From: an uncultured Actinomycetota bacterium
GTDB lineage: Bacteria; Actinomycetota; Actinomycetes; CAVWCF01
Assembly (NCBI GenBank): GCA_963753435.1
Contig: CAVWCF010000001.1
Location: 1,120,001 to 1,184,000, forward strand
DNA: 64,000 bases
Direction: 5' to 3'
Shown here: positions 7,715 to 10,497 of the stretch, in pieces
How positions within the stretch are numbered: the first letter of the stretch is position 1
Layout of the letters: each line of letters starts with the position of its first letter
Made by a program: the position numbers and the translations under genes
The notes under the pieces: generated by a model
Seen by the model: the letters and a program-made list of their open reading frames with translations, nothing else
What the model was told of the DNA's origin: nothing
The model's database searches: none

Positions 7715-8739
7715 CTAGAGAGTGAGGCCGATCAGCGTCGGCTCCGGAACCAGTTCAACGCCGAAGCGCGCCAGCACCCCGTCGCGGATCTCGCGGGCCA
7801 ACGCGATGACGTCTGCAGCCGTTGCGGTGCCGGAGTAGTTGGTGATGGCCAGCGTGTGCTTGCTGGACAGCCGTGCCGCCCCGCCGCCGTAGCCGGGCGC
7901 AAAGCCGGCCTGTTCGATGAGCCAAGCCGCTGACGTCTTAATGCGGCCATCGCCGGCCGGGTACCGGGGGGCGGCCGCCGGCAAGGACTCCGCGCGCGCG
8001 GAGTCCAGCACGGGTTGGTGAAGAACGAGCCGACGCTTCGCGTGTCCGGATCGTTGGCGTCCAGGACCATCCCCTTCTTGCGCCGCAACGCCAAGACTGC
8101 GCCGCGCACTTCCGCTGCCGGTGCGCGGGCACCGACCTCGACTCCCAAGGTGCGCGCCAACTCCGCGTAGCGGATCGGCAGACCCAACCGTTCGGTGATC
8201 AGTTGCAGCGTGACGTCCAGGACGACGAATCGATTCGGTGCGGCTTTCAGCGAACTCGTGCGGTAGCCGAGGCCGAGGTCGCCGACCGCCAGCGTGCGCA
8301 CCCGACCTTCGTGCCGGTCAAAGGCCCGGATCCGCGCCAGCGTGTCACCGACTTCCTGCCCGTAGGCGCCGACGTTCTGAATGGGCGTGGCCCCGGTCAA
8401 CCCGGGGATGCCCGAAAGCGCCTCGATGCCGGCCAGCCCGTCGTGGATCGCCCGCTGCACCGCCTCGTCCCACGGTTCGCCCGCGGCAATGGTGACCAGA
8501 ACGCCACCGCAGGAATCGGAGTCCCGATGCATCCCGCGGTGGCCGACGCGCACGACCACACCGTCGAAACCGTCGGCGGAAACGACGACGTTCGACCCGC
8601 CGCCCAACACCAGCAGGGGCTCCCCCTGATCGTCAGCCGCGCGGATGGCGTCGATGAGTTCGGTCTCCGAGTCGGCGGTGACCCACCGCCGGGCGGGGCC
8701 ACCGACCCCCAACGTGGTGACGTCCGCAAACGTCGTCAT
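7715..8739 (-). CDS. murB: UDP-N-acetylmuramate dehydrogenase (apparent frameshift ~8010)
   Basis: [33 protein letters not shown]; continues in another frame with [24 protein letters not shown]. Confidence 0.93.
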
Positions 8740-9668
8740 GGCCGGGGCGCCAAAAGCCCGTCGCGACCACGGAACCGCTTGAGCAGTCGGTCATAGGTGC
8801 GCTTGGACTCGACTTCCCGAAACTCCGGATCGCTGTCGTGGTACCCGTGGTGCCGTCCCTGGCGCACGGGCAACTCATCGGTGGCCACCGGCTGCACCAG
8901 GCGTCCACCGGCCTCCCGGAGCAGCAGCGACCACTCCATGTCCGCGTTGCGATAGAAGCGCGCCTTACGGCTGGGCGGCGTCCCGGCGGCGGCGTCCCGG
9001 CGCACGGCCAACAGGTAACCGAGCAGCGCGTCGACTTCACCCGCGTCGGCATCGACGAACGTGCGCCAGTCGTCTTCCAGGTTCACGTTGACGCCGCGCC
9101 ATCCGGCCGCCACCACATCGCCGGTCAGGGCCGCGGCGAGGGGCGTGATCGCGTCACCGGTGAGGACCGACGACAAGTCCAGGACCACCTGCGCCGTAGC
9201 GGTGTCGGCACGAAGCAGGGCGGTTACGGCCGGGCCCCAGCCGACCGGCGCGTTGACATGGAACACCGAGACGCGGTCGTTGGCGGCGGCCAACTCCTCC
9301 AGCGCCACTCCGGCGTCGTCCACATTGCCGACATCAAGGGCGATCACGCGCAACTGGGCCGGTCCGTGCTGCAGCAGGCTCTCGACGCAAGTGCGCACGT
9401 CGTCAGGCCAGCCGTCCACGACCAGCAGCGCCGAAACGGCATGGGTGTCCGGCTCCTGGCTGCGATCGGGCAGGTCGCTCAGCCGGTCCAGTACCGCAAA
9501 CGGCGGCGCCTCGGCTAGCTCAAAGCCGTCCGGGGTGTCGGTGAGCAGCCAGCCCGCGTCGGCGATCCGCCGGCGTAACTCATCGGCGGTGGCGAAGTCC
9601 CTGGCCTGACGTGCCGCAGCCCGCTGCTCGGCCCAGGCCAGGACTTCGTCGGGGGGCTGCGCCGACAT
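8736..9668 (-). CDS. CysRS C-terminal-like helical domain fused to GT2-like glycosyltransferase
   Basis: N-term RAAARQARDFATADELRRRIADAGWLLTDTPDG; then CVESLL, IALDVGNVDD, EVDALLGYLLAVRR, FYRNADMEWS. Confidence 0.7.
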   Translation of the reverse strand: MSAQPPDEVLAWAEQRAAARQARDFATADELRRRIADAGWLLTDTPDGFELAEAPPFAVLDRLSDLPDRSQEPDTHAVSALLVVDGWPDDVRTCVESLLQHGPAQLRVIALDVGNVDDAGVALEELAAANDRVSVFHVNAPVGWGPAVTALLRADTATAQVVLDLSSVLTGDAITPLAAALTGDVVAAGWRGVNVNLEDDWRTFVDADAGEVDALLGYLLAVRRDAAAGTPPSRKARFYRNADMEWSLLLREAGGRLVQPVATDELPVRQGRHHGYHDSDPEFREVESKRTYDRLLKRFRGRDGLLAPRP

Positions 9669-9670
9669 CG

Positions 9671-10063
9671 CTACACCCGAACCGTGGCGCGAGCTCGGCC
9701 GAGCACCTTGTCCGCGCCGCATCGTGCGGTCAGGTCGACCTTGGCGGTCCCGTCCGCGTCCGCCGGAGACATCGAGACCTCGAAGTCGACGGTGGCACCG
9801 GCGTCGTCGTCAGGGACCACCACCGGCTTGGTGAAGCGCACGGAGTAGTTCAGGAGCCGGGCGGGGTCCCCCAGCCAGTCCGTCAGCACCCGCGCGCCCA
9901 ACGCCATGGTGAACATGCCGTGAGCGATGACCCCCGGCAGCCCGACAGACGTGGCGATCCGGTCGCTGTAGTGAATCGGGTTGAAGTCGCCGCTGGCCCC
10001 GGCGTAGCGCACCAGGTCGGCCCTGGTGACCGTGAAGGACTGCGCAGCCACGACCTCGCTCAT
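9671..10063 (-). CDS. MaoC-family dehydratase (HadB-like)
   Basis: YAGASGDFNPIH...IAHGM hydratase-2 motif. Confidence 0.92.
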   Translation of the reverse strand: MSEVVAAQSFTVTRADLVRYAGASGDFNPIHYSDRIATSVGLPGVIAHGMFTMALGARVLTDWLGDPARLLNYSVRFTKPVVVPDDDAGATVDFEVSMSPADADGTAKVDLTARCGADKVLGRARATVRV

Positions 10064-10497
10064 TCGTCCTCCGCCCGGGAGACCAGCGTGCTGGAGAGGA
10101 CGACGACCGTTTCACCGGCCGCGTCGGCCACCTCGGTGCTAGCGGTCAGGACGGTGTTGCCCATGAGCACCTTGACCGCGGTGACGCTGACCGTGGCGGT
10201 GAGCAGGTCCCCGGCAACGATGGGGCGGCGGTACTCGAAGCCTTGATCGGAGTGCACGATCCGGGCGTAGTCCAGGCCACTGTCGGCGTCGGCGATCACC
10301 GCGTCCAGGGCATCCAGGCCCAGAACTATCGCGAACGTGGGCGGCGCGACCACGTTCGCGTAGCCGGCTGAGCGCGCGGCCTCGGCGTCGTGATGCAGGG
10401 GCCCGGTCTCGCCGATGGCAGTGGCGAACTCGCGGACCTTCTCCACGCCCACCTCATACGGGTGGCGCGGGGGGTACGTGCGTCCGACGATCGACAT
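10060..10497 (-). CDS. MaoC/FAS1-like dehydratase N-terminal domain protein (HadA-like)
   Basis: YEVGVEKVREFATAIG...APPTF...IVHSDQGFEYRRPIVAGD. Confidence 0.9.
   Translation of the reverse strand: MSIVGRTYPPRHPYEVGVEKVREFATAIGETGPLHHDAEAARSAGYANVVAPPTFAIVLGLDALDAVIADADSGLDYARIVHSDQGFEYRRPIVAGDLLTATVSVTAVKVLMGNTVLTASTEVADAAGETVVVLSSTLVSRAEDE

Follow-up and report, generated by a model that had tools for sequence, protein, structure and literature searches.

We found that a 310-amino-acid protein encoded on the minus strand (P0001, positions 8736..9668) of the window, the whole 64,000-nucleotide stretch of Actinomycetota DNA analysed here, combines a predicted anticodon-binding domain of cysteinyl-tRNA synthetase (CysRS) with a predicted glycosyltransferase (GT) domain of the GT-A type, and that across Actinomycetota this gene is co-inherited with another CysRS gene to which it is not linked (CysRS2, the second CysRS), likely its real partner. 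The protein is likely an undescribed enzyme working on cysteine tRNA, and it is highly probable that it acts on or with tRNA-Cys together with CysRS2.

The gene is read on the minus strand, as the plus-strand reading of 8736-9668 is interrupted by stop codons, and the peptide quoted in the first-pass annotation corresponds to residues 14-48 of the 310-residue product. The tight packing between a HadB-like gene and murB that this annotation described was confirmed: the stop codon of the upstream MaoC/HadB-like dehydratase gene (9671..10063, minus strand; assigned by Pfam and regarded as context) is followed after 2 nt by the start of the GT gene, whose own stop overlaps the start of the downstream murB (7715..8739, minus strand) in the sequence ATGA. 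The context also includes a HadA-like dehydratase gene (10060..10497, minus strand; Pfam) and rpmG for ribosomal protein L33 (10550..10714, minus strand), and the tRNAs near the GT gene are those for Met, Thr, Tyr, and Trp, with Cys absent. Among related loci, hadB was found upstream in 64 of the 76 having upstream DNA and murB downstream in 43 of the 76 having downstream DNA, whereas carriers from other classes showed different neighbours, namely FtsH, an ECF sigma factor, and an alpha/beta hydrolase; the hadB/murB neighbourhood gives no clue to function. The murB gene itself shows a frame shift near 8015, its conserved C-terminal part continuing in the other frame, which is likely an assembly indel. 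A family-profile search for longer forms of the GT protein returned at least two matches, one of them a murB fusion. Fusions of GT to murB were seen in L130, a decayed copy in genome G088, and in P0290, an apparently intact protein of 684 amino acids.

Residues 7-53 (9510..9650, minus strand) were predicted to have the helix-helix-beta-hairpin fold of the CysRS tail, which bears out the CysRS-type N-terminal domain that the first-pass annotation had proposed. The N-terminus alone matched the Pfam family CysS_C (PF23493) at E 0.002 and 18.6 bits, the gathering cut-off being 23, while CysS_C was found above the gathering score in homologues, for example with 26.4 bits in G026; matches of the N-terminus to NCBIfam CysRS tails had E values of 2e-4 to 4e-3. 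Upon comparing the family profile with solved CysRS tails, we obtained E values of 1.7e-9 (3tqo) and 2.9e-7 (1li5/1u0b). When residues 3-55 were modelled in isolation (pLDDT 95), the first of 500 Foldseek rows was 1u0b, the E. coli CysRS-tRNA complex (TMq 0.80, rmsd 1.2 Å, E 0.019), and the second was 3sp1, the Borrelia CysRS (TMq 0.78, rmsd 1.8 Å, E 0.14), with the next row at a probability of 0.35; the weak E values arise because the isolated domain has only 53 amino acids.

In a gap-free alignment, R16, R20, F25, D29, R32, and D44 of this domain, hereafter the reader, fell on R423, R427, W432, D436, R439, and D451 of E. coli CysRS (1li5), the last of which we take to be a functional residue of the anticodon domain. 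Conservation was quantified in 326 distinct homologues (profile E<=1e-25, spanning the GT domain, with close actinobacterial relatives over-represented), where the reader was counted among ungapped rows only (about 300 homologues). R16 (296/299), R20 (298/306), D29 (290/302), R32 (290/301), and D44 (299/303) were 95-99% conserved, position 25 was aromatic in 290 of 305 homologues, and few positions anywhere in the protein are as well conserved as those of the reader. According to the accessible part of PMC12684709, R427, D436, W432, and R423 of CysRS contact G34, and the accessible part of PMC13449415 reports that mutation of R427, W432, D436, and R439 alters anticodon reading. The reader is absent from the GT in two lineages. 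Four proteins (P0163, P0232, P0252, and P0261) were seen to be built from 6-11 CysS_C-like units in tandem, joined by linkers of low complexity.

A conserved linker (residues 54-75; 9444..9509, minus strand), partly retained in homologues without the anticodon domain, leads to a GT2-like domain (residues 76-310; 8739..9443, minus strand) that is GT-A by predicted fold, with a conserved but atypical pocket. The domain matched Pfam PF00535 at E 9.4e-6 and 26.1 bits, above the 23.3 cut-off, the full AlphaFold model had a pLDDT of 96 and a pTM of 0.91, and residues 73-310, compared with GT-A structures, best matched 6yv7 (Z 19.5, rmsd 3.7, 216 aligned residues). The GT-A/GT2 assignment with a degenerate DxD made in the first pass thus held, as the profile alignment puts DLS (residues 164-166; 9171..9179, minus strand) on the DxD of solved GT2s. 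With D164 in 297/325 and S166 in 292/326, about 90% of homologues have D-x-S where GT2/GT-A enzymes have the DxD metal-binding motif, and the usual Tyr-Asn of the N-terminal nucleotide-binding motif was also replaced in this alignment. Both the catalytic-base Asp and the C-terminal His of GT-A enzymes are present: D243 (320/326), within R240-N-A-D243 (8940..8951, minus strand), aligns with the ED-motif Asp of the chondroitin polymerase K4CP and occupies what we take to be the usual position of the GT-A catalytic base, and H273 (8850..8852, minus strand) is kept in 308 of 321 homologues. In the RHHGYH stretch, which the first-pass annotation had pointed out as His-rich, H273 is the single position with strong conservation. 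Including R240 (313/326), R284 (313/326), S288 (312/326), and R294 (306/326), the pocket residues D164, S166, R240, D243, H273, R284, S288, and R294 are 90-98% conserved, which argues against a dead relic; at the same time, given the DxS and the altered nucleotide-binding motif, a standard metal-dependent reaction with an NDP-sugar cannot be taken for granted. The family is large, with 1407 of 7998 scored candidates counting as relatives (E<=0.001), and the Atlas clusters having both Pfam families are unannotated; a plasmid search gave zero matches, and a metagenome scan for distant loci gave four weak ones, all generic GT2s.

Profile matches include proteins of 720-820 amino acids that join CysRS, CysS_C, and GT2, with Roseiflexaceae and Dormibacteria as named sources; among 971 long homologues at E<=1e-30, both PF01406 and PF00535 were found in 118 of the best 120. 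These Chloroflexota/Dormibacteria fusions, entered as 'cysteine--tRNA ligase' (for example HEU5012563.1 and MHB1501512.1), have a homologous reader, linker, and GT, and their CysRS subtype equals that of CysRS2 in the present genome, where, by contrast, CysRS2 and GT are separate, unlinked genes that both encode a reader.

The present genome has three CysRS-family genes, namely canonical cysS, mshC, and CysRS2 (P0271; L001/L087; G000:C5:142904-144286, minus strand, on another contig and outside the window), of which CysRS2 is closest to the fused type. CysRS2 scored 372 bits against TIGR00435 for CysRS, above the cut-off of 340, and 254 bits against TIGR03447 for MshC, below the cut-off of 485, lies on a separate tree branch from MshC, and carries CysS_C at E 9e-12. 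It keeps the Zn ligands, the HIGH-type and KMSKS-type motifs, and the anticodon residues, with C26, C222, H247, E251, R423, R427, D436, R439, and D451 invariant in 47 CysRS2 sequences. A quick 40-row tree placed 21 split CysRS2 sequences together with 5 fused ones beyond a branch having an SH-aLRT of 100; as none of the rows was a housekeeping CysRS of CysRS2's insert type, the tree does not fix where this clade ends. Among 10 genomes from other classes (92-100% complete, picked mainly from two families), CysRS2 was the sole PF01406 gene found in 8, and hence has to be capable of supplying translation in these. Judging from its sequence, CysRS2 is a competent synthetase. In the present genome, the CysRS2 gene is divergent from a ferredoxin gene, and mshB lies ~9.5 kb away, beyond some chemotaxis-like genes and a VanW-like one. 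Extra CysRS-family genes (L114, L273, and L274) occur in G017, G022, and G069, that of G017 grouping with MshC on a long branch.

We found GT and CysRS2 to occur together across genomes. Among the 251 genomes of a class sample (with E<1e-30 required for a GT orthologue and E<=1e-85 for CysRS2; 17 weaker GT matches at E>1e-9, generic GT2s or CysRS tails, uncounted), GT was present in 47 and CysRS2 in 47, with both in 45, GT only in 2, CysRS2 only in 2, and neither in 202. A phylum sample of 251 genomes (GT at E<1e-50, CysRS2 at E<1e-100; four weaker matches dropped for each) gave 45 with GT and 51 with CysRS2, of which 44 had both, 1 GT only, and 7 CysRS2 only, while 199 had neither. Hence, the profiling against cysS genes that the first-pass annotation had suggested revealed co-occurrence with a second CysRS, the two being together in 45 of the 49 (class) and 44 of the 52 (phylum) genomes having either. 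The counts with both include one each from G023 and G332, which are unpublished genomes, and Fisher tests, which were computed, overstate the association, as kin are not independent. The pairing held in families where it is patchy (f3, 1/15; f28, 1/12; f25, 2/14; f16, 5/9), and CysRS2 lay within 0 of 80 GT loci.

Some genomes deviated. In G088, CysRS2 is absent and the GT is without its C-terminal motifs and fused to murB; in G017, the GT is intact and CysRS2 is present only as a fragment; and in the GT carrier G351, CysRS2 was not found. In nine genomes, eight of which are assembled in 90 or more contigs, CysRS2 was present but a GT was not found, and a search for a hidden GT orthologue in these nine and in five genomes with the S51 family described below returned at best an ordinary GT2 (E 2.9e-22). 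CysRS2 fragments without the catalytic core occur in five GT-less genomes, and together with G088 these sequences indicate that the decay of GT and CysRS2 is coupled. Short CysRS2-derived proteins (L313-L318), in which the helical-bundle part is kept and the catalytic core and anticodon domain are gone, were seen in six genomes without an intact CysRS2 and may serve some purpose in their own right. A family with genomes of 1.3-1.5 Mb had the GT/CysRS2 pair in 15 of 15 sampled, and both of two tested genomes of this size retained cysS, CysRS2, and mshC; that such genomes keep GT and CysRS2 beside cysS and mshC argues for strong selection on function. The GT gene is present in loci from records titled Nanopelagicales/acI, and we infer that the 1.3-1.5 Mb genomes belong to this lineage. 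Records L014, L024, L037, L057, L062, L032, L069, L070, L072, and L077 are titled Bifidobacterium breve or Rubrivirga, and their homologues are close to the Nanopelagicales/acI-titled ones; these titles look wrong.

A second family showed a distribution that mirrors that of GT. It joins an S51/cyanophycinase-like domain to a CysRS helical bundle and CysS_C (P0292, L132:460-1659), i.e., it has the bundle and the anticodon domain and no CysRS catalytic domain, in whose place the S51 domain stands, and it occurred in 56 class-sample and 20 phylum-sample genomes, with one S51 count coming from the unpublished G030. Its members (L253-L262, L275-L294) keep the Ser, His, and Glu motifs and frequently have an alpha/beta hydrolase gene next to them. 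S51 and GT overlapped in 1 of the 56 and 0 of the 20 genomes, that is, in 1 of 76 (G182), and S51 and CysRS2 in two genomes; seven families hold both GT and S51, never in the same genome (among them f5 with 3 + 1 of 4, f20 with 2 + 2 of 4, and f28 with 1 + 10 of 12). About 150 class-sample genomes had neither GT nor S51, and no S51 gene was found in the present genome. This near-exclusion suggests two solutions to one tRNA-Cys task, although P0196, which fuses S51, CysS_C, and GT, indicates that they are not always alternatives.

The queuosine parallel drawn in the first-pass annotation was not sustained. The tRNAs that carry queuosine are, according to the accessible part of PMC12518689, those for His, Asn, Tyr, and Asp, with tRNA-Cys (GCA) not among them. 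Profiling against the queuosine pathway found tgt in just 2 of 5 GT carriers, and not in the present genome (G000, 98% complete), G004 (100%), or G263 (98%), so queuosine is not required; as the reader is moreover of the GCA type, we rejected this link. The miaA gene was present in 5 of 5 carriers and was non-discriminating. A special tRNA-Cys as the target was rejected as well: the present genome has a single, ordinary tRNA-Cys gene, and the tRNA-Cys of 14 carriers and 11 other genomes (one control being the unpublished G251; the query covered 30 genomes, six of them without a match) showed no difference, all best matches being ordinary and, across the 25 genomes, unsorted by carrier status. 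We know of no acceptor base on tRNA-Cys. Shared cysteine auxotrophy was set aside as a weak lead only: a CysK-type match at E<1e-120 was found in 1 of 24 GT, 1 of 24 S51, and 10 of 24 other genomes, a comparison confounded by kinship, and a CysK/M-family gene was present in all 72.

Mycothiol genes were tested in 40 genomes, in groups confounded by kinship. Among 19 GT carriers, MshA was found at E<1e-120 in 18 (16 above the cut-off) and an MshC-like protein (E<1e-105) in 4, with none in 15, and MshB and MshD were below the cut-off in 4 of 4 MshC-less carriers. S51 genomes had an MshA-like protein in 10 of 10 and an MshC-like one in 8 of 10 and, in another set, 5 of 5, and genomes with neither system had MshA at E<1e-120 in 2 of 10. 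Four genomes (G263, G277, G416, and G345; L334-L338) have MshA above the cut-off without orthologues of MshB, MshC, and MshD, leaving a hole in the mycothiol pathway. In two small genomes, mshB and CysRS2 were separated by about 330 bp, and mshB was nearby in 3 of 10 CysRS2 loci, and an operon of mshA with GT, CysRS2, or S51 was found in none of 9 mshA loci. These data, from kin-confounded groups, support a thiol route in some lineages, while the present genome has mshA, mshB, mshC, and mshD all above the cut-off.

That the protein is directed at tRNA, as the first-pass annotation had proposed, is supported by the kept reader residues, the CysRS fusions, and the co-inheritance with CysRS2. The reading we favour, tentatively, is that of a tRNA-Cys-docked transferase adding a sugar near the anticodon. 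The CysRS-type reader would dock the protein on tRNA-Cys, the GT-A domain would transfer a sugar onto the anticodon arm, and CysRS2 would charge the modified tRNA-Cys, which the canonical CysRS may handle poorly. If the product were accepted by CysRS2 alone, a GT with its own reader would still need CysRS2 beside canonical cysS, and, of the readings weighed, only sugar transfer to the anticodon arm explains this need. The short, confidently predicted linker between reader and GT, together with the fused CysRS catalytic domain, which would hold the acceptor end, points to the anticodon arm. Sugar transfer to the tRNA leaves two things unexplained, however: the near-exclusion of GT and S51 and the retention of both synthetases in genomes of 1.3-1.5 Mb. 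The DxS and the altered nucleotide-binding motif, the ordinary tRNA-Cys, the intact GT in G017, the nine CysRS2-only genomes, and the two reader-less GT lineages also count against it.

The near-exclusion (1/56 and 0/20, and the seven families) would be better explained if the enzyme acted on the cysteine of Cys-tRNA-Cys, glycosylating it or moving it to an amino-sugar such as glucosaminyl-inositol, which we regard as possible, if doubtful. The pair would then serve to make a mycothiol-like thiol or some other cysteine-sugar conjugate in a tRNA-dependent way, with the S51 hydrolase as an alternative enzyme for this task, and the mycothiol hole (MshA in 18 of 19 carriers, no MshC-like protein in 15 of 19) would also be better explained. 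The closeness of mshB to CysRS2 in two small genomes fits this route, a DxS might suit a monophosphate-type donor such as A76, and fusions like ErdS, in which a synthetase is joined to a second enzyme using its tRNA (accessible part of PMC9437257), provide a precedent. Yet the present genome retains the pair alongside all four msh genes, an MshC-like gene persists in 5 of 5 and 8 of 10 S51 genomes, mshB is near CysRS2 in just 3 of 10 loci, the neighbours of mshA are without GT, CysRS2, and S51 in 9 of 9 loci, and P0196 fuses the two supposed alternatives; moreover, the GT's own reader could take Cys-tRNA from the canonical CysRS, which leaves a strict need for CysRS2 unexplained. An apparent interchange of GT with a Ser-His-Glu hydrolase would also suit a quality-control or regulatory partner of CysRS2, either a deacylase for a wrong or damaged residue on tRNA-Cys or a non-catalytic nucleotide-ligand sensor tuning the Cys-tRNA supply. 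The degenerate DxD is in line with this, and the fused and separate forms recall editing domains, which occur both in cis and in trans; we consider it improbable, however, as the GT is attached at the anticodon end, presumably far from the aminoacyl ester in the fusion, retains the catalytic-base Asp and the His, and has, to our knowledge, no counterpart among editing domains of the GT-A fold. A conventional glycosyltransferase of the cell envelope, tied to murB and hadAB and with a CysRS tail surviving from an old fusion, would fit the translational coupling to murB, the recurrence of hadB and murB at related loci, the two lineages without reader, and the glycan-making enzymes among the fold neighbours, but is made very improbable by the exceptional conservation of the reader residues, the near-perfect co-inheritance with an unlinked CysRS, and the different neighbours in other classes.

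Several known systems share parts of this architecture. The bacterial CysRS anticodon domain (PF23493; 1u0b, 3sp1) has the same fold and G34-reading residues, whereas here it stands N-terminal to a GT-A domain in a protein without a synthetase catalytic domain. The GT2/GT-A enzymes PcManGT (6yv7), SpsA, and K4CP share the fold (Z 17-19.5), the first DxD Asp, the catalytic-base Asp, and the C-terminal His, and differ from the present protein in its DxS, its altered nucleotide-binding motif, its extra conserved arginines, and an identity of 9-17%. LysX and MprF are further synthetase-transferase examples, and the ErdS-type partner is a membrane GNAT-type transferase, whereas here a soluble GT-A is attached at the anticodon end. 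QTGAL, which we take to be a GT2 enzyme, and QTMAN, the animal queuosine-tRNA glycosyltransferases, need queuosine in tRNA-Tyr or -Asp and have no synthetase partner, whereas the present reader is of the GCA type; like the enzyme proposed here, they are glycosyltransferases. They act on the anticodon loop of tRNA (accessible part of PMC12518689). MshC, the Cys:GlcN-inositol ligase of mycothiol synthesis, is a CysRS paralogue tied to sugar chemistry in Actinomycetota, yet it is tRNA-independent (accessible part of PMC2922099) and without an anticodon domain, whereas CysRS2 keeps the reader and a separate mshC is present. CysRS2 is also not the CysRS* of the SelC* system, which is without the anticodon domain and linked to SelC*/SelB* (accessible part of PMC9437257), as CysRS2 keeps this domain and the genome has one ordinary tRNA-Cys. 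A MetRS fused to a nucleotidyltransferase and an aminotransferase is described in the accessible part of 10.1101/2025.10.13.682103.

In our literature search, we found neither a description of the GT/CysRS2 system, which subscription journals and supplements may hold, nor a glycosyltransferase paired with its own aminoacyl-tRNA synthetase, and the literature searched described no function for the fused or the split form; 'glycosyl' was absent from the main text of PMC9437257, PMC11580382, and PMC2922099. What is new here is the split actinobacterial form, the co-inheritance of GT and CysRS2, the occurrence of CysRS2 as the only CysRS, and the distribution of S51 as a mirror of that of GT. Overall, we lean towards the view that many Actinomycetota and Chloroflexota, including abundant streamlined freshwater lineages, have a second branch of cysteine translation, in which a dedicated CysRS works with a tRNA-Cys-docked GT-A enzyme that would glycosylate the tRNA or its cysteine, and for which an anticodon-reading S51 hydrolase would be interchangeable. 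If true, either bacteria would glycosylate tRNA in a way that does not depend on queuosine, or an enzyme of the GT-A fold would be using aminoacyl-tRNA. As the pair is small and soluble and offers clear point mutants, tRNA binding and product are directly testable. The near-exclusion with S51 ties two large unstudied families to one tRNA-Cys question, and the lineages with MshA and no MshB, MshC, or MshD hint at a thiol or sugar pathway yet to be recognised.
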